A stretch of DNA of 63,734 nt, filler included, from Psammoneis japonica (taxonomy: Eukaryota): the NCBI GenBank assembly GCA_008632985.1. It is 3 parts of 3 records of this genome, joined end to end, with 100 filler letters (N's around TTAATTAATTAA, not from the genome) between each part and the next. Parts side by side here need not be neighbours in the genome. Positions count along the whole stretch, not along the records: positions 22,468 to 45,046 come from QPGO01000439.1; 2 more parts are not named here. One strand, written 5' to 3'. Shown here one piece after another: positions 2,321-62,465 of the stretch; position 1 is the first letter of the stretch; each line of letters starts with the position of its first letter. Both the position numbers and the translations under genes were made by a program. The notes under the pieces are model-generated. The model worked only from the letters and a program-made list of their open reading frames with translations, searched no databases and was not told the origin of the DNA.

Positions 2321-2334
2321 CGTGTGTCAATCTG

Positions 2335-5520: not shown

Positions 5521-5625
5521 AAACCCTCACAACACACACCGTCCACATGACCAAACCTTGGCTGCAACCATTTGCACAATCATTCTCGACAATCCTTTGC
5601 TGTTTCTTTCCACCAAAACACCAAA

Positions 5626-9420: not shown

Positions 9421-9755
9421 GAATTGTTGTCAGCAATGTTGAAATTTGAAAATGTGTTTGTGTGTAACAACGAATGGCCCAACTTGCTTTTCATGTGGCT
9501 GTCATTGCGTTTCAACGGAGACGACATTTCGCATTTTGACAGCAAATAAAAAGTGCAACATTCATTGTGAATGCCAGATAAAAAATCAAAATGCAGACAT
9601 GTCACACCCACAAGAATCATCCAAATCTGGAAGACAATGTAATGTTTGCCAATTTCTCACCATTTTTTTGCGTGTTGTTCTTCTTTTCCCTTCTCATCCA
9701 CAAGACAAGGATGACGAGCATGAGTCTTGATGAAGGCCCTGTCAATGTTGTCTGA

Positions 9756-13440: not shown

Positions 13441-13452
13441 TGTGTCAATCTG

Positions 13453-16920: not shown

Positions 16921-18379
16921 AACCCTCACAACACACACATTGAAGGGAGATGAGCTGAAGATCTTGATTCAGCTGGTTTGTCCAAATGCCGGTTTGTCAG
17001 GGAAGAGCATTGAAGTGAAGAAGAAGGAGCTTGAGAAGCGGAACGTCACAAAAGAACATCTCGACTCCATTTGCACTCAGAAAAGGCGTGATCTCGATGA
17101 CCTCAAAGCAAAGCTTCAGGGCTCTTCGGCTGACAGTGATTCGGACAATGAAGACCAAGAAGAGTTGGCCCAAATGTGCAATCGTCTGCATCATCTAGAC
17201 TGAGAACCAAATTTCGTCAACTTTTTGTGAGGAGAAATGTGTCAAGTGATTTTTGACAAACGACCTCGCAACGAAAGAATGTTGCACTCATGGCAGAGAC
17301 GTCCGTTTGGTGACTGCTGTTTTCTTGTCGAAACGGTTGATTGTGCGGCGCCAGCTGTCTGCTCAACCCACTTGCACCAAGCCACGCAGAAAAATCGCGC
17401 AGCGGAAATCCAGTGGGCGACAATTCTGCAGAAAGCTGCGATGCCTGGTGCGACAAAAGGAGAATTGGGTTGAGTGATCATCAATCTATTTTTGTGCCAG
17501 AGCCTGCGTGATTCTACGCCTGACATCATGATCACTTCAGAGATGGGAATCCCCTGCACAGTGTGTGTCTCTCTCTTGCTCTTATCTTGGGACTTTTTCT
17601 TTGAATTTGTTGCATGGCGGAGGCGCACGGGGGGCGCGCGGGGCGGATGGTGGGGCAAGGATGATGTCATCTTTACTTGTTGTTAAGGTAATCGCAGAAC
17701 GAAGGGGTGAAGGCACGACAATTTGATTTTTCAGGATTTTTCTACTGTACGAGAAACGCGTAGCGCGCTACGCGCCTCGTCGCCAACAATCGGCGACGTG
17801 ACGGTGGTGCGTTGTCGTAACGATGGCGATGACAGCGACGTGTCCCAGAGTCTTTTGTCGTTATAGACATTTAGTTTATTATGTTTACGAACGTATCCAG
17901 TCATGAAATTCCCCGCGAGCAACCTCCATTAGAGCGCAAAACGTCATACCAATAAGGAGCTCTGTTTTTCGACCGTCGTTTTATGCATTCGATTATCGAA
18001 CGATTATGAGTTTGTCCGGGGGACTTTCTTTACATATATGTGTCCTGCATAGTGTAATTGATTAATGTATTAAGTGCCTATCGCAAAGTCGTCCTCTATC
18101 AGCGTCTGAAAATTGTCATCGTCATCGTCGGCGTCGACGGCAATTTGTCGCGCAAATCGCAAAAAATGCACGACTGTCGTCTGTCTGACATTGCGCTATT
18201 GTGCGCTCGTTGTGCGCATACCTTAAGAAAAAAGTTCTTAGCTGACGTCGTTTGTCCAATCAGATTTCCATACCGCCGTTATGACCGCACTTACCATATT
18301 ACCGCAGATACGTATTCTGCCAGTCGAGACAAAAAGACGAAGGCAAAACACTTGCCATTACCGCAATGGAAACACAGCA

Positions 18380-37500: not shown

Positions 37501-40500
37501 TTGTTGTCAGGAAGATGTCACGCCCCTCCCTCCACTGCCATTGACTGCACCAGATTGTCTTCGAATGACCCTGTTGGTGATCCACTGCTCCCCAAATTGT
37601 CTGGACACACAAGATTGTGTGCGTTCAACACCAATGGCTGTTCATTTGATCACCGTGGTGGCGACATTATAATGATTGTGCACAAGTGGCCACAGAAATT
37701 CAAGCTGATGTCACAGGCATCTCTGAGACATGTTCAGACACTGCACAATTCCAAGTTTGGCACAGCTGCACGGCAGCGGCAACAAGAGGCTTGTGTCATG
37801 GCAGAATCACCTGTTTGTCATCAAAGACTCCCTTCTCCACTCCTTGTGAACCAGGTGGCACCGCTGTCACATCTTGCAACTCTCTGTCCGCGAGGTGTTG
37901 AGCACAATGCAAAGATCCATTGGGTTGCTGGTCCATGCAGATCTTTGATGGAAAGCACGGCCAACAGGTCATGTTTGTTTTGTGTTGCAGAGTGTGTTCT
38001 AACTCGTTGTCCATTGCAGGCAAAACAACTGCATGTGCTCAACAAGTGGCGCTTCTCCATCAACAAGGCCAAGCAAATCCAGATCCCCGGTGAGTGTTCT
38101 GCACCGATCTGACACGCATTCTTGAGCACTTTTGAGATGAGCCAAATCGGGAAGTGATTCTGGCAGGCAATTTTAACACAGACTTCCGTGACGATTCCGA
38201 CACTCTCGCATCTGTGGCCCAACGATTCAACATGTCGGACGCCATGCATCACAAGCATGAAGACCTTGATTTTTCTGCCTGTGTGCAAGGCTCCAGATGT
38301 TTGGATTGTGTGCCAGTGACCCCCGGTGCTTTAGCAGCGGTGCGGCACTGTGGATGTGAACCATTCAGCTGTTGCATGTCTTTGGATCACCGTGCCCATT
38401 TCGTGGATTTTGACACAGTTGCCCTGTTCGGCAGTCCGTCAGTTGATTCATCAAGACCAAAGTTCAGTGATCTCCAAGCATTGTCTCCTAAACATGTCAC
38501 CATGTGTCTTGAAGCAATGGATCCCTTGACCACCAGTAGAAACATTCTGGATCGTGCAACAGCCTTGTTTCAATCTGACACTCCTGACCACAGCCTTGCT
38601 GAGCAACTCAACCGTGACATGACCCAATTCTCCCTGGCAGCAGCCAAGCAATGCAAACGTCACAAAGAGCCAGAATGGTCCATCAAACTCACCGATCTTT
38701 GGAAACAAGTTTTTGCATTGTCCCGAATGATGTCAATGTTCCGCAATCGCAAGGATGTGGTGCCTTTGGTTCTTCAAGAGAAATGTAAAATCTCTTCTTC
38801 CTTTCTCCTTCCCACAACAATCCAAGAATGTTCTGCTGCTTTGCGCTGTGCTAGATCCAAGTGCCGACAGATCGCAGAGAGAGCCAGAAACACCGTGATT
38901 CTGAATGAGACACAAAAATTGCAGAACTGGAGCTAGAAGGTGCCAAAGCGTCAAAAGCTCAGGCCAAAATTCTTTGCAATGTGCGATGTGCAGAAGAGAC
39001 CAAGAGAGTCTTTAGAAAGATTAACGCATGCAAGGCCAAGGAGGACTCCAGTGTTAAGACTGTTCAAGTGCCAGTGAATCCTCATGACAACCCAAAGACT
39101 TGCGAGCATTGGATGACAGTGGAAGCTCCGGACGACGTCGAAGCAGCACTTCAGTCCAGGAATCAACGTCATTTTGGCCAGGCCAAAGGTGCACCGCTGA
39201 CTGTCCCGTCCTTGTCAGTGGACCTGGGGTGCAAAGGTGACACCATTGTGGCAGAACTTGTTTTGGACGGAGAATGTGACACCAGTCAGTTGAACCATGC
39301 GACCTTGTCACTTGTCCAGCATCTTCGTCGTCACACACCTCCAACGGTGAACAATTGTCTCTCATCCACCGCATTGCTGTCTAAATTGAAAACGTGGTCA
39401 GAAGCAACGTCCACCTTGCTGAAATCAGGATCACATCTTGGATGTTGGAAGGCATTGTGTGCACCTCATTCACACTCTAAAGCTCAAGACACTCAAGGCA
39501 ATCCGACCCCGAAGAGATCACTCCTTGACCAGGTTCAGCAAATGTCGCTCATGATTCAACTGCATCTCATTAACTGCACATTGAAATGGGGACATTCACA
39601 TGACCGCTGGAAAGACATCATCAATGTGATGACATTCAAAGAGCCAGGCAACAACAAAATGCACCGCCTGCGCGTGATTCACATCTGCAAAGCAGATTTT
39701 CAAATCATCACGAGCACAAAGTGGCGAGAACTGGCACAACACATGGAGCACCACCGGATGTGTGACCCAGGAATTTATGGCTGCCACTCTTTCCTCTCTG
39801 CCCAGACTCCTGTGTTTCTTGAAAACCTGATGCCAGAAATGTCCCGAGCTTCCAGAAAGATGACACTGACAAGCGACGATGATTTCACCTCATGCTTTGA
39901 CAAGAATGTCCCTGCAATCATTGGACTTTGTTCCCGGAGTGACGGAGTGGATTCACATGTGGTCAAAGTTAAAATAGATGCCTTGCATCACGCCAGACAC
40001 TGGCTGCGCACCTTGCTGGGATTGGCCCAGCGGAGTCATTCCCACACGGACGATTCCCCCCTCTGCGGCACCGGTCAAGGCAGCGGCAATTTTCCGTGGC
40101 ACTGGAACACCCTTTGCAGCCATTTGTTCAACATTTTTGATGCCAAAGCAACAGGAGCATGCTTCAAAACTCCTGATGGCTGATTCTTCATCCACGTGCA
40201 CAATCGAGGATGTGCAGACGACACGTCCAAACAAGTCAATGACTTCCGTGCCAGTCTCCTCAACCTTCAACTCTTGACCTGTTGTTCTCATCACAACAGG
40301 ATGATCAACTCTGGTGTGATTTGCTGGACGCAGTGCAGCACAAACTCGAGTCACCCAAGTGCTTCTTTCTCATGTGGTCGAGTGGGATTTCACCAAGTGC
40401 GGCGAGCCATGCATTCGTCCACATCATGAAGACCTTGACACTGAGATCTTCTCCGCCGACTGGCCCACTTCCCGTTCAAGCACACAACTTGTAGCATGCG

Positions 40501-41217
40501 CACTGTGTCACATGTGCACAAAAGGGCAATTGCACATCCAGCCGTTGTTCACACTGGTGACATGCAAGCATGTGTGCCGCAACACCCCCCTTCAAACTGA
40601 TGTCAGGATCTTCACGAAGCACACTGGTTTGCATCACATTCAGAGGTGGATGTTTTCTAGTTGTCAGTGTCAGGTGTGCATGTTTGTGTGTTTTCATTGT
40701 GCATTACAACTGTCAGTGCAATCGCCGGAGAGGTGTCTCCTGTGCCTGTCGGGATGCTTTTATGTGTATTTTGTTCAATTTGTGAACTTGTTTGTGTTGT
40801 TAGTAAGGCTACTCTGTTAGGCGTCTCGTACCCTGTTGGCTTCTCGTACCCTGGTTGGAAGGCATGTTTTGTACGCTCCTCTTGCGCAGACATTTTCTGC
40901 ATGTTAGTTAGGCTGTTATAGGCGTTTGCCCCCCCTGCGTTACCGTGAACTTTTTGCATGAATCAAGGTGTCGAACCTGCGACCACTGTTCTCTGGAGTC
41001 GCCTCAAATCTGTTGAAAGTCGAAGCTGTCCCGTCGCGCTCGTGCGTGCAGGCGCGGTGCGTCTGGTTCCCACGAACGACTCTGGTGAAATGGACATTTT
41101 CGTAGGCTGCAACACATGTCCGTCGAATACATTTAAATTGCCCTTTTCTTCTATATACACATACAATGACAGATGTTGCACATTAATTTTACGGTCACAA
41201 CTCAACGGACAACCGAC

Positions 41218-41792
41218 TTTCAACAAAAAGTTGTTGAAAGTTAGATCTTTCAACAAAAAAGTTGTTGAAAGTTAGATCTTTCAACAAAAAAGTTGTTGAA
41301 AGTTAGAGCTTTCAACAAAAATCTGTTGAAAGTTAGATCTTTCAACAAAAACCTGTTGAAAGTTAGATCTTTCAACAAAAACCTGTTGAAAGTTAGATCT
41401 TTCAACAAAAACCTGTTGAAAGTTAGATCTTTCAACAAAAACCTGTTGAAAGTTAGATCTTTCAACAAAAACCTGTTGAAAGTTAGATCTTTCAACAAAA
41501 ACCTGTTGAAAGTTAGATCTTTCAACAAAAACCTGTTGAAAGTTAGATCTTTCAACAAAAACCTGTTGAAAGTTAGATCTTTCAACAAAAACCTGTTGAA
41601 AGTTAGATCTTTCAACAAAAACCTGTTGAAAGTTAGATCTTTCAACAAAAACCTGTTGAAAGTTAGATCTTTCAACAAAAACCTGTTGAAAGTTAGATCT
41701 TTCAACAAAAACCTGTTGAAAGTTAGATCTTTCAACAAAAACCTGTTGAAAGTTAGATCTTTCAACAAAAACCTGTTGAAAGCAAGCTTTCA
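41218..41792. repeat. 30-bp tandem array (ttcaacaaaaacctgttgaaagttagatct), about 19 units
   Basis: Most units identical. Each contains the inverted pair TTCAACA/TGTTGAA. Confidence 0.97.
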
Positions 41793-43054
41793 ACAGAATT
41801 CTCTTGAAAGTCGGTATTTTCAACAGCTCTTTCATCCTAAGACGGACAACAAGGTTCACCAGGGTGGTTTTGAGATTGTCTGCTTGGCGGCACATGCTGG
41901 GGACTTTTTTGAGAACAAGTGTGAGGCCCAGGTGGTTTCTGACTCTGACATCCTCATGACGGTGCCGTCCGCACCCCACTCGCACCACCACGAATGCGAG
42001 CGCTTTCACCATAACGCAAAGGTGCTGTGTGATGCATGCCACCAGACGGAAACACCGCACAGCAAGCTGACCACCAAACTCCGTGAAGACGAGAAACACG
42101 GTCGTGGATGCTGACATTTCATCTTGCGATTCCCAGCGCCTCTCAAGCTTACTGGCCGTTACCACTCCAAAGAGGATGGCTGTCTCAAGCCACATTGGGT
42201 GCCAGTGGAGGGTGAACCGTTTGTCCATAAGGAGGAGACACGTGTCAGGGTCACTGACAACATTGTTTTTGGGGTTGCAATCCAGTCGGGTGACACAAAA
42301 GTCAAAGATCGTGACGAGAACAGCTGGAGCCATGCATGCCTTGCCAACACCACCAAGAGCGGCTTGAAGTTGGCCTAGCAGTTCAGTGCTGGTTCAGGTT
42401 TTAGCAGTTTAACAATTTATGGTGCTGGTTTCAAAGTTTGTGGAGGCAGTTTCAGAGTGCACAATGGCAGTTTCAGAACATTCGTCAGCAGCAGTTTCAG
42501 AATTCTTCATTTCTTGAAATTAGTTGTCCCCAGCAGTGGAGCACCTTCGATGGCTCCAAGTGAGCTGCCTTCTGATGCGCCGGTGCACCAATCAAAGCTG
42601 AACCGCGCAGTGAACCACCTTCCAGTTCCGAGTCTGAGTCCCAACATGCTGCATCTTGCGCACCACGTGTGGCACCAACCTGCATCCTTCGTGCACGCTT
42701 TTCCAAATTCGAAATTGCTTCGAGGTTTCAAACAAAACAGAAATCCACAATTCTCAATGACACACAATGGGACCAACCCAGTGGGATGCATTGTGCATTT
42801 TTTCCCAATTGTGAAAAAAGAAACGGGGAATGCGGTTTAAGCGTCATTGAGACATCACGCCGTAAAGTGGGACACCGTCGGCTCGCTTCATTGTGTTGGC
42901 TGCTGCGCAAAGTTCCAAAGTGGGAATTCCACTGCCGATGCTGCAGTGGGGCCCCACTGCAGAGGGCCCCTGTGTCGGCAATGTGTTTCGTGGATGTCTT
43001 AGATGACGTCGCTTGTCCAATCAGATTTTCGTGCCGCCGTTGTGAATTGTTGAT

Positions 43055-43222
43055 TGAAAGTTGTTGAAAGTTACGTCTTTCAACAAAAAGTTGTTGAAAG
43101 TTGCGTCTTTCAACAAAAAGTTGTTGAAAGTTGCGTCTTTCAACAAAAAAGTGTTGAAAGTTAACGACTTTCAACAAAAAGTTGTTGAAAGTTGACGACT
43201 TTCAACAAAAAGTTGTTGAAAG
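43055..43222. repeat. Related 30-bp array, about 5 units, at the other end of the TIR element
   Basis: gttgttgaaagttgcgtctttcaacaaaaa variants. Confidence 0.9.
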
Positions 43223-45046
43223 TTATTTGGCGATAAACGCTGCAATGACTTTCTTGTTATCGAAAACTAAAAAATTGTGTGAGAGAACCCATCCGTTTCT
43301 CGATTGCAATTGTTCATCGCGTGTGTGTGTTGTGGGCAATAGACTGAATTTTGTGCAGTCCAATTCGCTGACTGTGTCGTTGTGCGGACATTGCAAAATG
43401 TCACAAAATTATACAAGAATGAAGCATTTCAATTTGAGTCGTAGTTTCAACAATTTTGAGGCGACTCCCTGGGCTCGGGGCTGTGCCACAGAGGCAAGCG
43501 AATCAATGCTCATAACCTGTCATGTGCACACAAAAGGGCGATTGCACATCCAACCGTTGTTCACACTGGTGACATGCAAGCACATGTGCCACAACACACT
43601 GCACAAAACTCTTGGACACTGCATGGCTCCAATCGGTTCCCAGAAGACCCAATTGAAGAAACTCCAACACAAGAGTGATGCTGCGGCCCTCTTCCTTAGA
43701 TCCTGTCACTTCAATCACATTGAAACATGGAGATGCCACCACGCTTGCTGCCTTTCTTCGATGACTTGCATTTTTCCAAACTCAACCTTCCTTCCCAAAG
43801 AGTTGCTTGCAGTTCAACAGAAAGCCATGGGAATTATTTTTGCCAAATGTGGGTGCAATCAAAGTGCAAAAAGATTCATCTTGTGCGGTCCCCAAGCCCT
43901 GGGAGGCAGAGGTTTTCGATCATTGGATGCAGAGCAAGGCGTTGCTCAACTGCAAATGTCACTGAAGCATTCCAGAGGAGTCACCAAATTAAATCTGGGA
44001 GAGGATCAACCACACAAACTGCTGCACATTGCAGTGTCATGGATCCAACTGAACTCAGAAACGGAGAAAGCTTTCTGTGGGATGCAGGTGCAGAACTCCC
44101 GCATGTGGAATCTTGTTGGTTTGCCTCCGTTCATGTTTTTCTCCACACAGAATTCAAGGAAAAGCACATTTGACTCATTCCGGCATTTTTCCCTTCAACG
44201 TGATGACAATCAGTGCATCATGGACATTGTGCTCCAGTCCCAACTCTTCTCTCACAGAGAAGTCAGATGGATGAATTGCTGTCGACTGCATGTTCAGTGT
44301 TGTCAGTGTCTGACATTGCTCTTGCAGATGGCTTGACATTGGAGGCTACGAAAACAGCAGGAGACCCGTTGCTTCAGAGCAACTCCAGCTCCTTGAACAA
44401 CGTTGAACAGCAAAAACCAGGAACAAGAGCCTGGACCACGTGGCGCAAGTTCTGTGCCTCTCTGTGTCGTTCGGCATCACACACTCTCAAGGAACCTCTT
44501 GGCAATTGGTCAGTGCCTCCATCTCAGATGTGCATGCAAGCCTCAGCACACTTCTCTCCTTCTGAAGAGCAACTGTGTGTTAGATCAACCAACGGATGTC
44601 AAATTTTTCAAGTGAATGGCATGAGGACCAACTCTGTCACAGAGTTGGAGACAGTTCCGGCCCCGTCTGAAGAGTCTTTTCCGGCAGAACTGTCAACAAC
44701 AGAAGATGGTTGATGGGCATTTGCTCCCACACTTCATCATCAGACTTCCTGAGCTCCAGGATCCCAGACATGTTCCAAGACAAACTGCACTTGCTGGGCC
44801 AGTGGAAAGAGAAGTTGTTTGACCAACTGGACTTTCACTCACCACCGCAAATGCCAATCCAATGTTTTGTGTCATCAAAGTTAACAGCTGGCAGTGATGG
44901 ATCCATCAAAGATGGAGCTGCCTTTGGGTAGACAATCACCCTGGACGGTGCACCACTGGTGGATTGTGCAGGACCAGTCTTTGGCAGAAGACCGTCATCA
45001 TGCCGGGCAGAGGCTTGTGGCATTTTGTCCCTCCTTCAATTCATTT

Positions 45047-45146: not shown

Positions 45147-45816
45147 GTCGAGGAAAACCAAACTAAAGAGGAGGATCCGCATGCAAAGTATCTTGGTAAC
45201 TCACAGCCACTCGTCGCTAGTACAATTAAGGAGACGCTTGAAGATGTTCTATTTGCCATCCGAGAAATCTTGCTGTGTTGTGTTGGACACAATCGAAGCC
45301 GAGTCTCGATTGAAAATGGTTGCTGTCTTTGCTGTCCGAGATCCGAAAAAAATGTCTGTAGTAGTCTTTCTATAATTGGTGGTCTCTTATTACGGTGCTC
45401 TCTCCAGCGACGTAGACGCTTCACCTGATGGAGCTTTGCCGTCAAGGATACTATACGAAAACTAGAAATGCCGCTCACTCAAAGCGCCCAGCAAACGGCT
45501 TCATCAAAAGCAGCAAAGCTAAGGCCGTGTTTGAAAATAATTCTTACTGATGACATTTAGCGATTCCGGTAGAAAACACGTACTATGTATATAGAAAACC
45601 TAATGATAGAATTCATCATGTGGAAAGGTGACAAGGAACGTGACAGTTTCCTCCTTTCGCAGTTATGCCTGTGGAAAACAAAATCCAACTCATTGTACGA
45701 GCATCGATCTACCACGTGCACAGGCACGGATCGTTATGAATTCACCGAAAGACTGAACGAGAATGAATTCTTTCTTCAGGCAGCATTCCCTTCTTGGATT
45801 CTATTTTGCAAATAAA

Positions 45817-48659
45817 TTAGGAATGAAAGACACGACTTCGCATTTTACCACCTTTACCACCCTTGCTGGATGTAGAAGACGTAGGCTTTGCGATGCTTGA
45901 AGAGAAGCCGGATTTTGCATTTCCTCCCTTGCTCTTGGCGGAGGAATAAGCAGCAGATCCTGAAGACGGTTTTGGTTTTAATCCATTCTTTCCGCCCTTG
46001 CCCTTGGAGGAGGAACCGGAGGATCCCTTCTTTCCTCCCTTACTTTTCGAAGAAGAGCCGGAGGATCCCTTCTTTCCTCCCTTACTTTTCGAAGAGGAGC
46101 TCGAGGATCCCTTCTTTCCTCCCTTACCCTTGGAGGAGGACGATTCCTTCTTTCCGCCCTTGCTCCTGGAGGAGGACGAACCCTTCTTTCCGCCCTTGCT
46201 CTTGGAGGAGGACGAACCTTCTTTCCGCCTTTACTCTTCGAGGAGGACGAACCCTTCTTTCCGCCCTTTGATCTGCCCTTGCTCTTCAAGGAGGATGAAC
46301 TTTTCTTTCCTCCCTTGCTCTTTGAGGATGATCCTCCCTTACTTCCCTTGCCTGGTGGCTTCGGCGAAGGTACAGGCGGCTTTGTAGGCTTAGGTGTCGG
46401 AGCAGGAGTCGGCTCAGGTGATGGTTCAGGCGTCGGCTCAGGTGTCGGAGAAGGAGTGGGCTCAGGTGTCGGAGCTGGTGATGCCGGTGGCTTTGGTGAC
46501 GGAGCTGATCCGCCCTTGCTCTTCGACGATCCGCCCTTGCTTGGAGGTTTAGGTGAAGGTGCAGGCGTTGGGACTGGTGTCGGAGCTGGTGTTGCTGGTG
46601 GCTTCGTCGACGGCGCAGGAGTCGGAGCAGGAGTGGGCTCAGGCGTTGGAGCAGGAGTGGGCTCAGGCGTCGGAGCAGGAGTGGGATTAGGTGTCGGAGC
46701 AGGTGTTGCTGGTGGCTTTGGCGACGGCGCTGGAGGCTTTGGCGAAGGGGACGGAGGCTTCGGAGCTGGTGACGGGGGCTTTGGAGACGGTGACGGGGGC
46801 TTAGGCGTCGAATCAGGTGTTGGCGAAGGCGTTGGAGAAGAAGTAGGAACAGACGTCGGGGCAGATGTTGGCGCAGGCGTGGGGGCTTTTGATGGCTCTG
46901 GTGATGGCTTAATTGTTGGAGCTTGTGTAGCAGGTGGCTTCGGCGAAGGCGACGGGGGCTTTGGAGACGGTGACGGTGGCTTCGGCGAAGGCGACGGCGG
47001 CTTCGGAGACGGTGACGGTGGTTTTGGTGAAGGTGATGGGGGCTTGGGCGGACAAGGACCCGGTGATGGCGGCTTTGGCGAAGGGGACGGGGGCTTTGGC
47101 GACGGTGATGGCGGTCTTGGTGCTTTCGTTGGAGCGTCAGTGGCCGGGGTGGTGGCTCCACAGAAGGTGCCAGAGTTTCCGGAGGCGGTGCAAAGGCGAT
47201 GGAGGTTTCGGCGAGGGCGACGGGGGCTTAGGCGAAGGAGATGGTGGCCTTGGGTACTTTGTTGGAGAAAGAGTTGCCGGAGGAGGTGGTGAAGGTGATG
47301 GAGGTTTTGGCGAAGGAGACGGTGGCATTGGGTACTTTGTTGGAGCATGAGTTGCCGGTGGCTTCGGAGAGGGCGACGGGGGCTTGGGCGAAGGTGACGG
47401 GGGCTTTGGGTACTTTGTTGGAGCCGCAGTTGCAGGAGGTTCTGGTTTTGCAGTGGGAGCTACCGGAGGCTTTGGAGAAGGTGACGGAGGCTTTGGGGAA
47501 GGCTTGGGATATTTTGTTGGCGGAAACGTCGGCGCTTTCGTTGGGGGTTTTGACGGAGAGTAATCGGTTCAGGAGGCGTAGTTGGAGATGCCGTTGGCGA
47601 CACGGTTGGCTCCAGAGTAGGAACAACAGTCGGTACAATGGTAATAACTTTATCTGGTGCCGACGGGGCGGGTGTGGGGGGCGGTGACGGCTGCCTCGTC
47701 GGACTGATTGTAATAACCTGTTCTGGTGCCGACGGCGCAGGAGTCGGAGGTGGGGTAGGTGTTGGCGTCGGAGGCGGCGACGGTTGCCTCGTCGGACTGC
47801 TGGTAATGACCTGATCTGGTGCCGACGGCGCAGGAGTCGGAGGTGGTGTAGGTGTGGGCGTCGGGGGCGGCGACGGTTGCCTCGTCGGACTGCTTGTAAT
47901 AACCTGATCTGGTGCCGACGGCGCAGGAGTCGGAGGTGGAGTAGGTGTTGGCGTCGGAGGCGGCGACGGTTGCCTCGTCGGACTGCTTGTAATAACCTGA
48001 TCTGGTGCCGACGGCGCAGGAGTCGGAGGTGGAGTAGGTGTGGGCGTCGGAGGCGGCACTTGATCGGTTGGTGACACTGTTGGGACTACGGTAATAACTG
48101 GATCTGGCGCCGACGGCGCGGGTGTCGGAGGCGGAGTCGGTGCGGATGTCAGAGGCGGAGTCGGACGGGGAGTAGGAGGCGGCGTCGGACTGGGTGTAGG
48201 AGGCGGCGTCGGATTGGATGTAGGGGATATGGTAATAACTGGATCTGGCGCCGACGGTGCGGGTGTCGGAGGTGGCGTTGGGGACGTAGACGGTGATGGC
48301 GTCTGGACTGTGGGCTCAGGACTCGGCGGTGGTGTTGGCGATGTAGTCGGGCTGAGTGTCGGGGAAGGTGTTGGCACAGGCGTGGGTGAAGGAGTAGGAC
48401 CAGCTGTAGGCGACAGAGTCTTAACCGGTTCAGGCGTAGTTGGAGAGGGAGTTGGCCACCTGAAGACAAGGCCGGGGGATTTCGTCGGCGCACAGGTTGT
48501 GGTGTCAATCAGGAGCTCTCTATCTCCCTTACGGAGATGAAATCCTTTTGGGCTTCTTAGAACCTCAAACGCACGACGAAGGATTTTACTGTAGAAGTGT
48601 TCATATGCTGCCGCCTGCGGTGCTACATAAATTAGGAACAGCACAGTTGCAATCCGCAT
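45817..48659 (-). CDS. Secreted Pro/Thr- and Lys/Ser-rich repetitive protein (silaffin/cell-wall-like), paralogue 1; apparent frameshifts in the repeats
   Basis: Signal peptide [21 protein letters not shown] motif, PTPPPTP and KPPSPSP repeats, [10 protein letters not shown] tail ending [16 protein letters not shown] (TAA 45817-45819). Normal TA content. Confidence 0.78.
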
Positions 48660-49364
48660 CGTTTCTTTCACAAGTTACTATCACAAGGCTCGACGAAGAG
48701 GATCTTATCACGTTGTGCGATTGGGTCACAGAGCTTTTGCGTGGATAGTTTGAGTGTTTGTGATCTTTACCAATCCCGAGATATGGAACGCTGATTTGCG
48801 CCGCCCCATCAGGTTCACGTAGGCGTGAAACGAAGTGAGTTCTTTGGCTGGCAAAAAATGTGAGCGGGTCTTGTTGCCGATTTTCAGATGGCAAAATGTG
48901 GTTTGTGTCGTGGAAAATAAATTTATGTTTGTATTCAGAACTAACGTTCCCAATTTCAGGGTACTGTCAATCCTCTTTTATNNNNNNNNNNNNNNNNNNN
49001 NNNNNNNNNNNNNNNNNNNNNNNNNNNNNNNNNNNNNNNNNNNNNNNNNNNNNNNNNNNNNNNNNNNNNNNNNNNNNNNNNNNNNNNNNNNNNNNNNNNN
49101 NNNNNNNNNNNNNNNNNNNNNNNNNNNNNNNNNNNNNNNNNNNNNNNNNNNNNNNNNNNNNNNNNNNNNNNNNNNNNNNNNNNNNNNNNNNNNNNNNNNN
49201 NATGCCCGTGGGCAACAAAATCCAACGTACGCGCATCGAATCTACCACGGTCAGTACGAGTTGAGCTCAAGAAAAAACTCTGACTCGTTAGATTTCATTG
49301 AAAGACTGAAACGAGATTTTTTTTCAAACAGCATTCGCTACTTGGATTCTCTTGTTCAAATCAT

Positions 49365-52300
49365 TTAGGAATGAAAGACCCGACTTCTCATTTTTCCACC
49401 TTTGCCACCCTTGCTGGATGCCGAAGACGGAGGCTTCGCGATGCTTGAAGAGAAGCTAGATTTTGAATGTCCACCCTTGCTCTTGGCAGATGAATAAGTA
49501 GCAGATCCCGAAGACGGTGTAGGTTTGAATCCCATCTTTCCTTCCTTGTCCTTGGAGGAGGAGCCGTAGGATCCCTTCTTTACTCCCTTGCTCTTGGAAG
49601 AAGAGCCCGAGGATCCCTTCTTTTCTCCCTTACCCTTGGAGGAGGACGATCCCTTCTTTCCGCCCTTGTTCTTGGAGGAGGACGAACCCTTCTTTCCGCC
49701 TTTACTTTTAGAGGAGGACGAACCCTTCTTTCCGCCCTTGCTCTTCGAGGAGGATGAACCTTTCTTTCCTCCCTTGCTCTTTGAGGATGATCCTCCCTTG
49801 CTCCCCTTGCTCGGTGGCTTCGGCGAAGGTGCAGGCGGCTTTGTAGGCTTGGGTGTCGGAGCAGAGTGGGAGCTGGTGTTGGCTCATGGGTCGGAGCAGG
49901 AGTGGGCTCAGGTGTCGGCTCATGCGTCGGAGCAGGAGTGGGCTCAGGTGTTGGCTCAGGCGTCGGAGATGGAGTGGGCTCGGGTGTCGGAGCTGGTGAT
50001 GCCGGCGGCTTTGGTGACGGCGCTGACCCGCCCTTGCTCTTGGAGGACGAGCCACCCTTGCCGCCCTTGCTCTTCGACGATCCACCTTCTTTCCGCCCTT
50101 GCTCTTGGAGGAAGACGAACCCTTCTTTCCGCCCTTGGATCCGCCCTTACTCTTCGAGGAGGATGAACCTTTCTTACCTCCCTTGCTCTTTGAGGATGAT
50201 CCTCCCTTGCTTCCCTTGCTCGGTGGCTTCGGCGAAGGTGCAGGCGGCTTTGTAGGCGTGGGTGTCGGAGCAGGAGTGGGAGCTGGTGTTGGCTCAGGCG
50301 TCGGAGCAGGAGTGGGCTCAGGCGTTGGAGCAGGAGTGGGCTCAGGCGTTGGAGCAGGAGTGGGCTCAGGTGTCGGAGCAGGAGTGGGATTAGGTGTCGG
50401 AGCAGGTGTTGCTGGTGGCTTTGGCGACGGCGCTGGAGGCTTTGGCGAAGGGGACGGAGGCTTAGGCGCTGGTGACGGGGGCTTTGGAGACGGTGACGGG
50501 GGCTTAGGCGTCGGATCAGGTGTTGGCGAATGCGTTGGAGAAGAAGTAGGAACAGACGTCGGTGCAGATGTTGGCGCAGGCGTGGGGGCTTTTGATGGCT
50601 CTGGCGATGGCTTAAGGGTTGGTGCTTGTGTAGCAGGTGGCTTCGGCGAAGGCGACGGGGGCTTTGGAGACGGTGATGGTGGCTTTGGCGAAGTCGACGG
50701 CGGCTTCGGAGACGGCGATGGCGGCTTCGGAGACGGTGATGGCGGCTTCGGAGACGGTGATGGCGGCTTCGGAGATGGCGACGGAGGCTTCGGCGGACAA
50801 GGACCCGGTGATGGCGGCTTTGGCGACGGTGGCGGCGGCTTCGGTGATGGTGACGGTGGCTTTGGCGACGGCTTCGGTGCTTTCGTTGGAGCCTCAGTTG
50901 CCGGAGGTGGTGGCTCCACAGAAGGTGCCGCAGTTGCAGGAGGCGGCGGAGAAGGCGACGGAGGTTTCGGCAAAGGTGACGGGGGCTTTGGCGAAGGTGA
51001 TGGCGGCATTGGGTAAGTTGTTGGAGAAAGAGTTGCCGGAGGCGGTGGAGGTTTCGGCGAAGGTGACGGGGGCTTAGGCGAAGGTGAAGGTGGCATTGGG
51101 GATTGTGTTGGAGAAAGAGTTGCCGGAGGAGGTGGTGAAGGTGGTTGAGGTTTCGGCGAAGGTGACGGTGGCTTGGGCGACGGTGGCATTGGGTACTTTG
51201 TTGGAGCGTGAGTTGCCGGTGGCTTCGGAGAGGGCGACGGGGGCTTGGGCGAAGGTGACGGGGGCTTTGGGTACTGTGTTGGAGTTGCAGTTGCAGGAGG
51301 TTCTGTTTGGCAGTCGGAGCTACCGGAGGCTTCGGAGAAGGTGACGGAGGCTTTGGTGAAGGTGACGGGGGCTTTGGGTACTTCGTTGGAGTCGCAGTTG
51401 CAGGAGGTTCTGGTTTGGCAGTCGGAGCTACCGGAGGCTTCGGAGAAGGTGACGGAGGCTTTGGCGAAGGTGACGGGGGCTTTGGGTACTTCGTTGGAGT
51501 CGCAGTTGCAGGAGGCTCTGGTTTGGCAGTCGGAGCTACCGGAGGCTTCGGAGAAGGTGACGGAGGCTTTGGCGAAGGCTTGGGATATTTTGTTGGCGGA
51601 AACGTCGGCGCTTTCGTTGGGGGTTTCGCCGGGGGAGTAATCGGTTCAGGAGGCTTAGTTGGAGATGCCGTTGGCGAAGGAGGGGTAATTGGCGCGGGTG
51701 GCGTGGTTGGAGATGCCGTTGGCGAAGGAGGAGTGATTGGTGCGGGTGGTGCAGTTGGAGATGCCGTTGGTGAAGGAGGGGTAATTGGTGCAGGTGGCGT
51801 AGTGGGTGGCAGCGTCGGGCGGGGTTGAGGCGGTGGGGTATCGGGTTGATCGGTTGGCGACAAGGTTGGCTCCAGAGTAGGAACAACAGTCGGCACAACG
51901 GTAATAACTGCATCTGGTGCCGACGGAGCGGGTGTCGGTGGCGGCGACGGCTGCCTCGTCGGATTGCTTGTAATGACCTGATCTGGTGCCGACGGCGCAG
52001 GAGTCGGAGGTGGAGTAGGTGTGGGCGTCGGGGGCGGCGACGGTTGCCGCGTCGGACTGCTTGTAATAACCTGATCTGGTGCCGACGGCGCAGGAGTCGG
52101 AGGTGGTGTAGGTGTGGGCGTCGGGGGCGGCNGTTGGAGTGGGTGTAGGAGGCGGCGTCGGAGTGGGTGTAGGGATGGGGTAAGTAACTTGATCTGGCGC
52201 CGACGGTGCGGGCGTCGGAGCGGCACTGGTGGCGGTGTCGGACCCGGTTGTGGTGGTGGGGTTTCGGGTTGATCGGTTGGTGACACGGTCGGCTCCAGAG

Positions 52301-54142
52301 TAGGAACAACAGTCGGCCCTACGGTAATAATTTCATCGGGTGCAGACGGGGCGGGTGTCGGAGGAGGACTGGGAGTAGTAGGCGGCGTCGGACTGGGTGT
52401 AGGAGGCGGTGTCGGACTGGATGTAGGGGATACGGTAATAACTGGATCTGGCGCCGACGGTGCGGGTGTCGGAGGCGGAGTCGGTGCGGATGTCGTGGGC
52501 GGCGTCGGACTGGGAGTAGTAGGCGGCGTCGGACTGGGTGTAGGAGGCGGTGTCGGACTGGATGTAGGGGATACGGTAATAACTGGATCTGGCGCCGACG
52601 GTGCGGGTGTCGGAGGCGGAGTCGGTGCAGATGTCGGAGGCGGCGTCGGACTGGGAGTAGGAGGCGGCGTCGGATTGGATGTAGGGGATACGGTAATAAC
52701 TGGATCTGGCGCCGACGGTCGGGGTCGGAGGTGGCGTTGGGGATGTAGACGGTGTTGGTGTCTGGGCTGTTGGCTCCGGACTCGGCGGTGGCGTTGGTGA
52801 TGTAGTTGGGCTGAGTGTCGGGGAAGGTGTAGGCACCAGGCGTGGGAAACAGGTGATGTCGGAGCTGGCGTTGGGGACGAAGACGGTGGTGGCGTCTGTG
52901 TGTTGGCTCCGGACTTGGAGGTGGCGTCGGCGAAGTAGTTGGGCTGAGTGTCACAATAGGTTCTCCCGCGGTTGGAGTAGGTGTCGGCCCCGGCGTCGGC
53001 GAAGGAGTAGGAACAGGTGTTGGTGGTGGTGTGGCCAACGGGTTTGTGACAAACTCGTATACCGCAGTATCCTCGCAAAGTTCGCCAGTAGGGAGAGGTA
53101 GCGCCTCAGCCACAATTTCCGTCCTATAGGTTGACGCGACGCACACGTCGATGGTTTCCGTGTTGGAAACATTACCTTTCTGCCCTGTCGATAGAGGGTT
53201 GGGAAGAAACTGGCCGACAAGGCTGGTGCTGTTCCCATCCCTAGTTTCGTCCAACGTGACCACTCTGATGGGCGTAGACCCCGTATTCTCGACAAAGTAG
53301 GTAACTGAAATGCTGGTAAGGCAGTCTTTGGATGCGCCTCCAACGTCACAGCCCTTCAGATGTAAACTGGCAAGCTCATCGTTGAGGCGCAGTGGGGCTG
53401 TTCCAGCAGCATTGAATGTAATCGTTTGGCCTCCTACCGTACAATTCATGACTGTGGGGAGTGCAGATGAACCCCGGAGATTTGAAACAGCATTTCCAGG
53501 CATCACACCAGACTCACTCGCAAAGCTATTGCCATTTTCATCAATGCAACTAATGTCCACGTCACTTGAAGGAGTATCGCCAGAGCAAGAAAATTCGCTG
53601 CCCTGGGATTGCTTTGAAGCACTGCAGGCGGTTGGCTGGTACACAAAGGTTAGGTCGGTCACAGGGGCACCGGTGAAGCACTGGCCATCCGGTTGAGCAA
53701 TGTTATCGCAGTCGACCGAGGTATCGTCCGTGAGTGTACAGCTGATGGTAGCCTGAACATGGAACAACGAGAAACATGGATAAGTTAGGGGTGCACGTAG
53801 AACTGTCAATAATCAGCGAGTACTTACTTCAGCAATACATTCAAGTCTTTCGGTTGGACTTGGGGTCGGTGATGGAGTAGGACCAGCTGTTGGCGACAGA
53901 GTCTCAACCGGTTCAGGCGTAGTTGGAGAGGGAGTTGGGAACCTGAAGATAAGGCCGGGAGATTTCGTCGGCGCACAGGTTGTGGTGTCAATCAGGAGCT
54001 CTCTATCTCCCTTACGGAGATGAAATCCTTTTGGGCTTCCCAGAATCTCAGAGGCACGACGAAGGATTTTACTGTAGAAGCGTTCATCTGCAGCCGCGTG
54101 CGGTGCTACAGATATCAGGAGCAGCACAGCTGCAATCCGCAT
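49365..54142 (-). CDS. Paralogue 2 of the same secreted protein, with an extra Cys-rich globular domain and one intron
   Basis: [18 protein letters not shown] and the same N- and C-termini. GT-AG intron 53753-53827 joins ECIAE to ATISCTL in frame. Frameshifts and an n in the repeats suggest sequence error. Confidence 0.78.
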
Positions 54143-55122
54143 CGTTTCTCTTTCAAGTCACTAATCACTAACACAAGGCTCGAGAAGGACCTTATCACGA
54201 AGTTCTTTTGGGTCGCTGAGCTGTTGCGAGGAAAATGTGAGTGTTTTTGATCTTTACCAATCCCGAGATATGGAACGCTGAGGTGCGCCGCCACATCGGG
54301 TTCACGTAGAGTAATACGAAGGAAAGTTCTTTGGTTAGCAAAAATGTGAGCGGGTCTTGTTGCCGAGTTTTTTTGAACCCGGTTTCATGATGAATAATTT
54401 TTTTCTCGATACTAAAATGAGTTAGCATCGCAAACGTGTGGTTTGTGTCATGGAAAATAAATAAATAAACCCTATAAAGGTATTTAGGTTTTTTTGTCTA
54501 TGTTGGCTAATACTTGAATATGAATATAATTAAAAGTATATATATGTTTGAAAGTCTATCATTTGATCGCGCTATCACATCCACAAGCTTTCACATTCAA
54601 TTGAATTTTTTAATTTTTATTTCGAGTCGTGTGATGGACCCTCCGTTGAATGTCAAGTGTTATTCAAAGTAACAATGACTGTTTTTGAAGATATACCAAT
54701 CCCGGATGGTCGGCTTGGCTTTCCTCGTTGTCGGAGTGGCGCACTCCAATCGTGACTTCCTGCGTCAGCACTATTTTCCTGCGCGCCATCACCATTTCCC
54801 AGTGGCTGTGACGGATGTCACTTGAAATGTGCTGATAAATGGGGCACATGCAAGAATGCTCAGGCATCAAACGTCACATGATCAGGCATTGTTCACATGT
54901 GGTGTGCGAGGGCAAGAATGTCAACCTTGGTCTCTCTGTGGAGGGTGTTGAGGACAGACACTCCTGACATGTTCACTTGGATGAACGAACTTGAGCAGGG
55001 TTAAAATCCTTGCATCGAGTCCCACAGTCAACTTCGATGCGACACACATGCAGGATTTTTTGTGCAAGTTTGGCTTGGCATTTTTTGAGTCTTACGAGGA
55101 ACAGTGAGATTGTTGCCACAAC

Positions 55123-55519
55123 GACGCGTTCCAGCCCCAGGTGGGACTCCGTGTGACATTGGGCCCGTGGAATTCCACGTGTGAGCTCAATTGTAAAATT
55201 GTTGAGCAATGAACATGTGAATGATTGCCAACAGAAAAAGAGGCAATTTTGCAAACGCATCTCCTCCTCCACACTTTGAGCACATTCTTTGCGCAGCATG
55301 CCCGGGTGTGTTTTCAGACACCAAAGAACATGCCCAGCGCACTTTTGTTGTCACAAATGCAGACAACAGAAAGCCTTTGGCTTCACAAAACAGGCAGTGT
55401 GGAACAAATTTTTGTGATGGAACATGCAGAAATGCACGTGCGAAACATGCGACGGATGATGAAAAACAACCATGTCACAGCTCAGCAGTGCGAGGTCCCA
55501 CCTGGAGCTGGAACGCATC
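55123..55519 (-). mobile_element. GACGCG-family MITE copy 5 (TA-converted)
   Basis: gacgcgttccagccccaggtggga ... tcccacctggagctggaacgcatc. TSD not clean. Confidence 0.88.
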
Positions 55520-56202
55520 GACGACATTGCTGCGCTCTTGCTCAAATTGGCGCTTTTCATGCAGAAACAGCCCAAGTTTTGAGACATGGTTTCCCAAGTC
55601 ACACTTGTGCATCCAAAGCTCCTGGTGGCCTTTGTCAATTCAGCCCCCATGGGTCCTGCCGCAACAGCTTTTTTGGCGCCACCAAGACAGCAGATGTGTG
55701 AGATGACAGGGCTCTCCTCTGACAAAATCAGCACAACCAATTTTCTGTTGACTGTGACACAAACTTTGTCCAAGAGCTCTCTCTCTCTCTCTCTCTTTCT
55801 TGAACAAATGATCAAAATTTCCATCAAATGTGACAAACAAATGGCGCTGGCAGCTGAGGTGAAGCCACTTGATCGGGCACAATTTGTCCAGCTGTTTCAG
55901 CAAACAGCAGGCACAACAACATTGGCCGAAGTCAAGAAAATGAGATTTTTGCAGTGGCTTCATCAGTGGCTAGCTGCTGTTGTTGATGTGTGGTGAGCTT
56001 TTGTGTTGGAACGATCAGAGGGGCAAGGGACAGGCGATTTGAGTCGACTGATTAATTTGATGTCAAGTCACCACGCTGTCTCTCTCTCTTTCTTTTTTTC
56101 TCTCTCTCTCTCTCTCTCTCTCTTGAATGAATGAGTGAATGAATTGGCACACTCTCTTTCTTTGTCTGGACAGGAGTTTGCAACAGGGTGTGGTCCTGCA
56201 CA

Positions 56203-60105: not shown

Positions 60106-62022
60106 CTAGGCGATACGGATAGTATGGGTGCAAAATCGTTCCAATTGTTCGTCGGAGTGTGTCACGAGAATGACAGGAATACCAGAATCAACGAGGGTCG
60201 TTTCCACCAATGATGAAGTTTTCTTGTCGAGTGCTCCCATGGATTCATCCAAGAGCAGAACTGTTGGTTTCAACGATAGGGCAATTGCAAGTGAGGCACG
60301 CTGTGCTTCCCCTCCCGATAAGGTAGACCAAGATTGATCCAAGGCGCTTGGATGTAAGCTCCACTGGATGCAATACTGGTCGGGACAAGGGGTGTTATCT
60401 TTCTCATTCTTCATTCGTCGGCTTTTGTAGCCAAGTACTTCGTTGAAAAACATTCTTGGAGTTCCACCGAGCGTTGGTTTATCCTGTGGTAACCAAGATA
60501 CCATGGATCGCCATTGGGCAAGACTATAGCTAGGCGAAACAGCACCGTTCAAAGAGATTTGCTTGTCATTTGTACCACTGAATACCTCAAACGCAGCAAG
60601 AGTTCTCAATAGCTGCGTCTTCCCTGATCCACTTGGGCCCATAACTCCGATACGGTCGCCATGAAAAAGATTGAATGAAACAGTTCGATGGTCGCGATGC
60701 CCGACCTTGACTTTGAGTTCTTTAACCTCCAAAACCGGCATATCTCTGCGGTCTTTTTTATCCGGCGTGCTCATCTCCATCGCCTTTATGGTGGGAGAAT
60801 TCTCGAATGAAGGTACTGACAAGCTCCCCGTTGAAGCCTTGGGTGAGTTCAGTCGAGTGTGTTTAGGATCTGCTGATAATCGAATACCGACAATCGATGC
60901 TACAAGTCGCCAGATGTAAGCTGATGGTGATTTGTCGCGGCTTATTGTGCCTTGATCTTGTGCTTGTTTGCCGCCCGTGTTTATTGAATAAAGTCGAGTC
61001 AGAGTGAGTGTTTCGCTAGCAAACATTTCGCGCTTAACCAATTGACAAAGGACAAGAACCATTGCGCAGGCACTGGTGGTAATGAAAAATAAAATCATGA
61101 CTTGGTATGCCGCCGCTTGATGCGGCGACTGTCCCGCCAATATTTGCCCCGACATCATGCCAGGCATGTGTACAATACCCGTAATGGAAAGAGAGTTGAT
61201 GGCGGGTGTTAGAGCGGACGTCAGAGCTGTCCGCACATGTGGTAACGCCGCCTCATCCGACGACGCACCACGAGCCAAGCGCAGTTCGATCTGATCTCTT
61301 CGAAGGGCGAATTCCTTTGTAAGCGAATCCGCAGCTAAACTAGCAGCTGATAAGGTATTACCAAATATCATTCCAGATATCGGGATAACGGTTCTTGGTT
61401 GAAACCAGGGATCGAGATTTCCCAATACATTCCACAGCAATGCAAGTCCCAGTACCGATAGCCCACCGGATAGTACAGAAACTACCAAGTGCTTGCTCAA
61501 CGCGGGATAGGAATACTCAACGCGCATATACGATTCATAGGCTGCAATTATTCCCACTCCAATAATCCATGACATGACAATGGCAGGATTGGTTGTTCCA
61601 AACAGTCTCGTGAGTATCAACGACCCCACCAGATAGAGTTGAAGCGCACACCGACCGCATGCAATCATAATCTGAACCGACAGCCGCTTCAGTCCTGCAA
61701 TTCTCATTCCTACACCACCAACCGATAAAGCCATACAAGCAGCGATTCCGAGCTTTTTCAATTCAAGTGGATGAGCTTGTGTTATTGGTGACGGAGAAGC
61801 AGCAGACGAAGCAGCAGACGCGGGAGACTTTGCCAGAATGAACCACGAAAGAATCATAGCCATTACGAAGTATATTTTTCTTCTCTGCTTTCTCGGTTCT
61901 CTATTCGCATTGGTCTTGAAGATACTGAATGGCCGTCGTCCAACGTCTCTCGTGTGTATGGTTCGATTGATGCGGTTGTTTTCTTCTGGACATTGTATGT
62001 TTGACTTTGCCAATGTCGACAT
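60106..62022 (-). CDS. Fused UPF0014 (FetB/YbbM, STAR2/ALS3-like) permease + ABC ATPase (FetA/STAR1-like)
   Basis: PWFQPRTVIPISGMIFGN, GIVHMPGMMSGQILAGQSP..AAAYQ; Walker A GPSGSGKT, signature LSGGEAQR, Walker B LLLDE, H-loop VTH. The true start may lie further upstream. Confidence 0.9.
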   Translation of the reverse strand: MSTLAKSNIQCPEENNRINRTIHTRDVGRRPFSIFKTNANREPRKQRRKIYFVMAMILSWFILAKSPASAASSAASPSPITQAHPLELKKLGIAACMALSVGGVGMRIAGLKRLSVQIMIACGRCALQLYLVGSLILTRLFGTTNPAIVMSWIIGVGIIAAYESYMRVEYSYPALSKHLVVSVLSGGLSVLGLALLWNVLGNLDPWFQPRTVIPISGMIFGNTLSAASLAADSLTKEFALRRDQIELRLARGASSDEAALPHVRTALTSALTPAINSLSITGIVHMPGMMSGQILAGQSPHQAAAYQVMILFFITTSACAMVLVLCQLVKREMFASETLTLTRLYSINTGGKQAQDQGTISRDKSPSAYIWRLVASIVGIRLSADPKHTRLNSPKASTGSLSVPSFENSPTIKAMEMSTPDKKDRRDMPVLEVKELKVKVGHRDHRTVSFNLFHGDRIGVMGPSGSGKTQLLRTLAAFEVFSGTNDKQISLNGAVSPSYSLAQWRSMVSWLPQDKPTLGGTPRMFFNEVLGYKSRRMKNEKDNTPCPDQYCIQWSLHPSALDQSWSTLSGGEAQRASLAIALSLKPTVLLLDESMGALDKKTSSLVETTLVDSGIPVILVTHSDEQLERFCTHTIRIA

Positions 62023-62465
62023 GACAATGTTCTGCTCTGTTTGAAACTAGAAACTGCAATATTTTGACGAGGCTCCCAAAAGATGGGGCAGATAAAGGCC
62101 TCCGCTTGATTAGCCAGGCACCAGCAACAGCAACCTGTCATCAACATGCGTTGATAATGCCGTAAAGATGAGCATGGTGCTCTCTTCATTTTTCTTCAAT
62201 TTTTTGTATTTTTTGTGCGTGAAGATCATCATCGATCGACGGCCGGCGGCCGCGCTGTCGCCTTGCTATGGTTTTCGAATCGAGCTCCCATTGTTTTAAA
62301 AAAAATCGATCTCGTGCACGCGGAACAGCCCACCGCATCATCGCGCACACAACATCACATCACATCCGCATCGTCCATCGCACACGGCATGACGATCACG
62401 ATCACATCGCATCATCCATCACATCCTCAATCTGCGGCGCCATCATCAAACCACCAAACAAGACA

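Follow-up and report, generated by a model that had tools for sequence, protein, structure and literature searches.

CA/TG differences between the terminal repeats of an inserted element in Psammoneis japonica point to dinucleotide-specific mutation of chromosomal DNA after insertion

A 63,734-nucleotide stretch of Psammoneis japonica DNA (assembly GCA_008632985.1; three parts of three records, joined by filler letters), here called the window, carries at positions 40506-43596 an inserted element with a short direct repeat at each end. These repeats, treated here as long terminal repeats (LTRs), would have been identical at insertion, and at three places one of them now reads CA where the other reads TG. 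The locus raises the question of when and in which molecule such swaps arose, and which letters they replaced. A preliminary description took them for independent mutations of integrated DNA, and named the element a terminal-repeat retrotransposon in miniature (TRIM). The analysis reported here supports mutation of chromosomal DNA after insertion, and points to two transition processes in the window, TpA erasure and CpG decay, that both end in CA and TG.

Results

The terminal repeats differ by transitions only

A repeat search and an ungapped comparison identified two 79-nt direct repeats, LTR1 and LTR2, in the same orientation and 3012 bp apart (Table 1). The repeats are identical at 70 of 79 bases. 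All nine differences are transitions, and in purine/pyrimidine code the match is 79/79. Three CA<->TG doublets account for six of the nine differing bases, and eight of the nine sit in CA, TG or CG dinucleotides. The repeats start TGT-CA-CA-TG-TG-CA-CA and TGT-CA-TG-TG-CA-CA-CA, exactly as the preliminary description had read them, and the CA<->TG swaps are as it had claimed; two CG/CA differences and one A/G difference were absent from its list. When nine random transitions were placed on LTR1, at least three CA<->TG doublets appeared with a frequency of 0.00076 (200,000 trials). The LTR observation is confirmed as real and non-random. LTR1 itself contains no TA and two CG, and its CA and TG each reach 2.6-2.7 times the expected frequency.

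The mutated tract spans the junction of flank and element

Observed/expected (o/e) ratios of TA follow one continuous mutated tract from the left flank (0.04 at 40000-40500) through LTR1 (0) to position 40700 (0.13). The tract ends at a sharp edge near 40705, inside the element, and farther into the element the DNA is mutated again (TA o/e 0.17-0.22). The tract thus crosses the junction between LTR1 and the flank and stops within the element, and therefore ignores the element boundary. Two swap sites of LTR1 that lie within 10 bp of each other read CA and TG, respectively, which means that mutation struck both strands of this one copy. Such a pattern misfits the editing of a single strand of a cDNA. 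In addition, a 5.5-kb segmental duplication elsewhere in the window, which is not an LTR pair and was never reverse-transcribed, carries 17 of the same CA<->TG doublets. These results support an origin of the LTR differences by mutation of the chromosomal DNA, later than the insertion and on both strands. The preliminary description had placed the mutation in DNA after integration and had argued against RNA editing followed by reverse transcription; the boundary-spanning tract and the duplication bear out the former proposal, and the two-strand pattern of LTR1 together with the duplication bears out the latter.

The essentially unmutated patch that follows this edge (40701-41216; 516 bp) retains 24 TA and is bordered on either side by heavily mutated DNA. 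Within it lie an 18-bp tandem repeat (40810-40858), a CG-rich segment near 41030-41060 and a TA-rich run of pyrimidine-purine (YR) dinucleotides at 41152. A search around the patch for the hallmarks of a nested insertion yielded none that were convincing, and no terminal repeats were found there.

TA is nearly erased from long tracts of the window

The window as a whole has o/e ratios of 0.25 for TA, 1.46 for CA, 1.47 for TG and 0.71 for CG. Over most of 1-17, 22-45 and 55-59 kb the per-kb TA o/e is 0.00-0.15 and those of CA and TG are 1.3-2.2. The gene islands (17-21.5, 45-55 and 59-63.7 kb) have a TA o/e of mostly 0.4-0.7 (range 0.29-1.22). The TA-poor tracts are enriched in CA/TG and have sharp edges. 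The element lies within this landscape, with TA o/e values of 0-0.11 in LTR1, LTR2 and both flanks and a CG o/e of 0.40-0.42 in the LTRs. CG o/e varies within the TA-poor tracts from 0.10-0.12 at 23001-25000 (TA 0.08-0.12) up to 1.04 at 16001-17000 (TA 0.00). TA loss would be faster than CG loss, because it is the more complete of the two. This spread suggests that the erasure of TA and the loss of CpG are distinct processes of different speed or age.

The mutated tracts (1-17000, 22000-45000, 55000-56000 and 57000-59000; 43 kb) retain 315 TAs. TTAA occurs 69 times in the tracts and 25 times in the islands (18 kb); for ATAT the counts are 1 and 35, respectively. Retention is about 3-4 times higher for a TA before A or after T than in other contexts, which hints that the mutator disfavours T-A-A.

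A segmental duplication and a five-copy family carry the same doublets

The two copies of the segmental duplication (1-5539 and 11117-16938) are 95-98% identical, rising to 98.6-99.7% in purine/pyrimidine code, and differ at 165 bases. Most of the 17 doublets lie outside YR runs as judged by reading their flanks (e.g. ...CCA[CA/TG]ACC...). Differences of the CG/TG (43) and CG/CA (37) types occupy 80 sites vs six for TA/CA and two for TA/TG. The doublets are clustered, 16 of the 17 lying in four bins at 2501-4500 (positions 2898-4496), whereas the CG singles are evenly spread (Fisher p=2.3e-5); the loss of TA from the 2898-4496 sub-tract may postdate the duplication. Counting TAs, 18 are kept in both copies, 8 are present in one, and about 34 appear to have been lost from both. 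A near-length search with the 550-residue open reading frame (ORF) at 13456-15105 on the minus strand, aimed at polarising the doublets, returned no homologue at E<=0.001. The discordant sites of a five-copy 400-bp family comprise four that keep CG in another copy, three that keep TA, and about 11-12 that are unresolved. Inverted 400-bp repeats lie at 1674-2068/4754-5146 and 12790-13186/16153-16545.

TA and CG are both candidate ancestors of the swap sites

A swap does not name its ancestor, because TA and CG are both palindromic YR steps that decay in this genome to the same two products, CA and TG. The preliminary description had proposed opposite-strand hits on an ancestral TA (or CG). The hits on both strands stand; TA is the more probable ancestor at each site, and CpG decay acts alongside, including within the LTR pair, where two of the six differing sites are CG/CA.

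The yield of doublets from CpG double hits alone was calculated with one rate for all CpGs, with one conserved and two single CpG sites as the input for the LTRs. The model gives 0.5 doublets for the LTRs, where three are seen (P=0.014), and 4.15 for the duplication, where 17 are seen (P=1.8e-6). CG retention in the five-copy family (10, 8 and 5 sites kept in three, two and one lineages) predicts 0.4 unresolved discordant sites vs 11. The under-prediction of doublets by the CpG-only model is 4- to 6-fold. One segment of the element has a homologue in an island: the island copy (18235-18285) has three TA sites, and the element copy (42996-43046) reads TG at two of them.

The two ancestors were weighed using island frequencies of about 2.8 TA and 5.0 CG per 79 nt. 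TA was taken to be lost almost completely, and CpG at 0.5-0.6 per copy, a value fitted to the one conserved and two single CpG sites. By this rough estimate the LTRs would hold about 1.1-1.4 TA-derived and 0.5-0.9 CG-derived swaps, and each swap site is roughly twice as likely to have been TA as CG. That all three were TA is possible though doubtful, and that all three were CG is very unlikely; a mixed TA and CG origin is likeliest. From the single five-copy family, the proportion of swaps derived from TA and from CG across the genome is put at roughly 70:30.

No third copy of the LTR was found in the window

A blastn search (word size 7) found no third LTR copy in the window, and a degenerate 45-nt pattern gave two matches there and none in 100 shuffles. 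BLAST of the element in purine/pyrimidine code against both strands of the window also returned no additional LTR copy. It gave an upstream extension to 40492 (11/14) and, at 40673-40726, an inverted match of 54 nt, neither of which exceeds chance for YR-periodic DNA. Metagenome scans with the 45-nt degenerate LTR pattern (any YR at each CA/TG/CG) and with two tandem-array units gave no matches. A public read run (X1) yielded 123 contigs placed on 39900-41210 at 80% likeness (18, 20, 40 and 45 by identity class). Transitions make up 161 of the 218 variant places over this interval. Among the variants listed, CA<->TG doublets occur at 40394-95 and 40677-78 and none lies inside LTR1. The contigs reveal numerous diverged relatives of the flank, of the LTR and of the beginning of the interior in this run; the depth peaks over 40516-40603 do not represent copy number.

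Architecture of the element

The element totals 3,091 bp with an interior of 2,933 bp (Table 1). Its repeats start with TGT and end with ACA, although TG...CA termini are weak evidence where DNA is rich in CA/TG. The terminal inverted repeat extends to 6 nt in purine/pyrimidine code (TGTCAC...GCAACA) and is exact for TGT/ACA. CACTG stands directly outside both repeats; two 5-mers of this tract would match by chance with a probability of 0.0016. The first TGG after LTR1 is at 40624, 40 nt downstream of the repeat, and the window lacks tRNA genes with which a primer-binding site could be compared; transitions could not mask a YRR (pyrimidine-purine-purine) start at the LTR1 junction. No polypurine tract adjoins LTR2, where six of the 15 nt upstream of 43518 are purines, and the closest purine-rich run stops 15 nt upstream of the repeat. 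Such a tract could not have been erased by the mutation, because transitions keep purines as purines. The tested ORFs of the element contain no recognisable protein domain, and their pentapeptide matches are translated tandem array. An LTR-type insertion is probable, and non-autonomous LTR-like element is the better and safer name.

Two 30-bp tandem arrays occupy part of the interior. Units of the second array vary between TTACG and TTGCG and between TTAACG and TTGACG, that is, between TA and TG. The 30-bp units carry an inverted repeat (CTTTCAACA...TGTTGAAAG), and that of the first array is partly palindromic. One TA is retained in 18 units of the first array, which reflects either expansion after the mutation episode or protection. 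Single units related to the arrays occur at 41006 and 41797. The island homologue of the approximately 50-nt module of the element lies just upstream of and extends into a 904-codon ORF (18242-20953), within an unmutated island. In the element copy, GTG stands in place of its start ATG. The module represents either the captured 5' end of a gene or a promoter module common to both places.

Table 1. Positions of the element, its parts, the differences between its LTRs and one gene elsewhere in the window
Feature	Position	Strand	Description
Left target-site duplication	40501..40505	+	CACTG, read from the sequence; identical to 43597-43601
LTR1	40506..40584	+	5' terminal direct repeat, 79 nt, TGTCA...CAACA
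First and second CA<->TG swaps	40511..40516	+	40511-12 CA vs TG and 40515-16 TG vs CA (LTR1 vs LTR2); in a run of six YR dinucleotides
Single CpG-type difference	40527..40528	+	CA in LTR1, CG in LTR2 (43539-40)
Single difference	40541	+	G in LTR1, A in LTR2
Third CA<->TG swap	40571..40572	+	TG in LTR1, CA in LTR2 (43583-84)
Single CpG-type difference	40578..40579	+	CG in LTR1, CA in LTR2 (43590-91)
Interior start	40585..40700	+	Mutated as heavily as the flank (TA o/e 0.13, CG 0.17)
Unmutated patch in element	40701..41216	+	TA o/e 0.73, CG 1.04
First tandem array	41217..41811	+	30-bp unit, 19.8 copies, 97% matches
Mutated interior	41812..43056	+	TA o/e 0.17-0.22, CG 0.63-0.75
Module of about 50 nt	42996..43046	+	TGACGTC, CCAAT, former ATG; homologous to 18235-18285
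Second tandem array	43057..43225	+	30-bp unit, 5.6 copies
LTR2	43518..43596	+	3' terminal direct repeat, 79 nt
Right target-site duplication	43597..43601	+	CACTG
ABC-transporter gene	60109..62046	-	

Reading frames and other features of the window

The 64 kb of the window contain 97 stop-to-stop ORFs of at least 150 codons, often overlapping on both strands. Long ORFs in the TA-poor tracts are meaningless, because TA loss removes the stop codons TAA and TAG. Of 20 long ORFs tested, 17 have no Pfam family, and none of the 20 has a transposable element domain. A 760-codon ORF in mutated DNA (9756-12035) has a weak match to a Plavaka (CACTA-type) transposase (E 0.0009), below the curated cut-off. 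No Rfam family and no tRNA gene was detected in the window. For the ABC-transporter gene at 60109-62046 (minus strand), the nearest Atlas cluster occurs most often in Bacillariophyta, which is no more than a lead. Positions 45700-53100 form a G-rich, strongly GC-skewed island. Tandem repeats with units of 21, 24, 93 and 108 bp make up duplicated arrays there, and very long minus-strand ORFs, of up to 1,049 codons, have no Pfam match. The product of this island may be a repetitive protein, structural or of the cell surface, whose gene is present as two diverged copies in tandem.

Discussion

The explanation preferred here, with somewhat more confidence than doubt, is a non-autonomous LTR-type insertion followed by TpA erasure and CpG decay in the chromosome. 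A 3,091-bp non-coding element would have inserted into repeat-derived DNA with two identical repeats. Two dinucleotide-specific transition processes, both ending in CpA/TpG, would later have acted on the tract. One would be a TpA-erasing A:T-to-G:C hypermutation, similar by inference to the type known from Bigelowiella natans, and the other the ordinary decay of CpG that was probably methylated. Each hit would fall on one strand or the other, and a site hit in both copies would read CA vs TG about half the time. The three LTR swaps would be double hits of this kind. An extended proposal, for and against which the case is evenly balanced, is a dedicated mutator of double-stranded DNA in the diatom lineage. 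It would convert TpA to TpG or CpA on either strand after integration, be confined to tracts yet blind to element boundaries, and spare TTA/TAA. It would be faster than CpG decay, because some tracts have a TA o/e of 0.00 with a CG o/e of about 1.0, and LTR pairs would serve as its clock.

Several points weigh against this explanation. Unmutated DNA of the window holds 1184 CG vs 660 TA, flanking-base context does not separate TA from CG at the swap sites (log10 likelihood ratio 0.3-0.4), and without a third LTR copy no swap site is polarised. Site 4966/16365, the sole doublet of the young duplication with outgroup copies, was ancestrally CG, which three other copies keep. In the five-copy family, three of the four CG-type sites are robust by parsimony; the three TA-type sites (TA, CA and TG states) are ambiguous, and each is equally explicable otherwise. 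A hypermutable subclass of CpG would remove the argument from under-prediction, and the TA reading of the duplication needs two classes of TA and as much rate heterogeneity as the CG reading. Part of the conversion may predate insertion, because CA + TG (26 per LTR) stands about 13 above the unmutated level and only three sites are discordant. The case for retrotransposition, for which neither a primer-binding site nor a polypurine tract was found, is built solely on the terminal repeats, their TG..CA ends and the duplicated target site.

How far the swaps can be pushed toward a single ancestor is limited on both sides. If the three sites were all CG at insertion and methyl-cytosine was deaminated on opposite strands, no TpA process would be needed. 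The two additional CG/CA differences of the LTRs, the 80 CG/TG and CG/CA sites of the duplication, its one outgroup-resolved doublet and the low CG o/e of the LTRs fit this alternative, as does a report that transposable elements are the major CG methylation targets in diatoms (PMC9998398). It is nevertheless improbable: it yields too few doublets in the LTRs, the duplication and the family alike, the doublets cluster where CG singles do not, and the depletion of TA in this DNA far exceeds that of CG. The per-kb TA profile is the reason that it was dropped as the leading reading. The opposite extreme takes every swap site and the whole run after TGT to have been TA, with an LTR that began TGTTATATATATATAAAAGGG and a TATA-like promoter element destroyed by the mutator, much as in the back-conversion to TGT(TA)nAAAGGG in the preliminary description. 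TA erasure is near complete in the tract, ATAT is the least retained context, and the YR run at 41152 in the unmutated patch is TA-rich (TA TA TA CA CA TA CA). Only two of the six dinucleotides after TGT differ between the LTRs, however, and the other four, identical in both, are uninformative. TA makes up 17 of 63 dinucleotides in 12 unmutated YR runs of at least five dinucleotides, which puts an all-TA run at <1% (rough estimate), and CpG decay competes at every site. An LTR start composed of TA throughout is hardly credible, and neither the back-conversion nor the destruction of promoter TATA boxes is supported.

Two other alternatives concern how the repeats were altered or made. Compensating 2-bp indels in CA/TG microsatellite-like runs, where the LTR begins and around the third swap, would preserve the purine/pyrimidine pattern, and both places do lie within YR runs; gapped blastn aligns the LTR pair at 90.9% over 77 columns, with gaps. 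Slippage of this kind would need four indels in two separate places that exactly preserve length. Genuine double substitutions are common in this DNA, to judge from the duplication, where YR runs do not contain most of the 17 doublets. It is given very little weight. A more serious but still unlikely alternative is that the 79-nt repeats are an unusually long target duplication left by a non-LTR insertion, or that a 3,012-bp unit was duplicated in tandem and the duplication is truncated. The repeats are very short for LTRs, LTR1 is in the same mutational state as the flank, and no primer-binding site, polypurine tract or coding capacity was found. Set against this are CACTG outside both repeats, the TGT...ACA termini and the 6-nt inverted repeat, which form a classical integrase footprint, and the finding that neither inner junction has poly(A) or a simple repeat. 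Such an origin would leave the mutational reading intact, since the copies would still have been identical when they arose.

An LTR-type insertion mutated afterward in the chromosome can be set beside four known systems. TRIMs and other non-autonomous LTR elements share its terminal direct repeats, TG..CA ends, 5-bp target duplication and lack of coding capacity. A complete TRIM measures well below about 1.5 kb, and its interior is short. The present element totals 3,091 bp, with 2,933 bp between LTRs of only 79 nt, no primer-binding site or polypurine tract found and a first TGG 40 nt beyond LTR1, and does not suit the TRIM label given to it earlier. CA vs TG at one site is the textbook double-hit outcome of methyl-CpG decay. 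Consistent with that process, CG/TG and CG/CA are the commonest differences between paralogs in the window and two LTR differences are CG/CA; unexplained by it are the TA o/e of 0-0.15 and the 4- to 6-fold excess of doublets. Counts of CA/TG swaps cannot be credited to the TpA process without outgroup copies.

The closest likeness is to B. natans, for which a preprint describes A>G/T>C hypermutation, restricted to TpA, that was measured in mutation-accumulation lines on integrated DNA of giant viruses and virophages, and proposes an ADAT2-like adenine deaminase that acts in a 5'-T-A context (Mettrop et al., bioRxiv 10.64898/2026.01.13.699255). As described there, the conversion is a strand-dependent change of TpA to TpG or CpA in chromosomal DNA, clustered in foreign or repeat tracts with TA depletion and CpA/TpG enrichment, as in the window. 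The rate was measured in the chlorarachniophyte lines, whereas the present case is a footprint alone, in a diatom-like genome. Depletion in the nucleocytoplasmic large DNA virus region of B. natans is moderate (Rho TpA 0.45; bioRxiv 10.64898/2026.01.13.699255), unlike the TA o/e of 0.00-0.15 over most of the window, which is accompanied by CpG loss. A literature search of titles and abstract openings returned no description of TpA erasure in diatoms. If the extended proposal holds, diatoms would become the second lineage, independent of the first, with a genome defence of the DNA-editing type, which has been measured to date in one chlorarachniophyte only.

Repeat-induced point mutation (RIP) of ascomycete fungi converts CpA to TpA and enriches TA. 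RIP shares with the window a dinucleotide-specific transition hypermutation that inactivates repeated or foreign DNA in sharply bounded tracts. Its direction is the opposite, as TA is depleted and CA/TG enriched here, and position within a tract, not duplication itself, seems decisive in the window. A diatom mutator would thus have a chemistry opposite to that of fungal RIP, and LTR pairs would offer a natural before/after experiment on its action.

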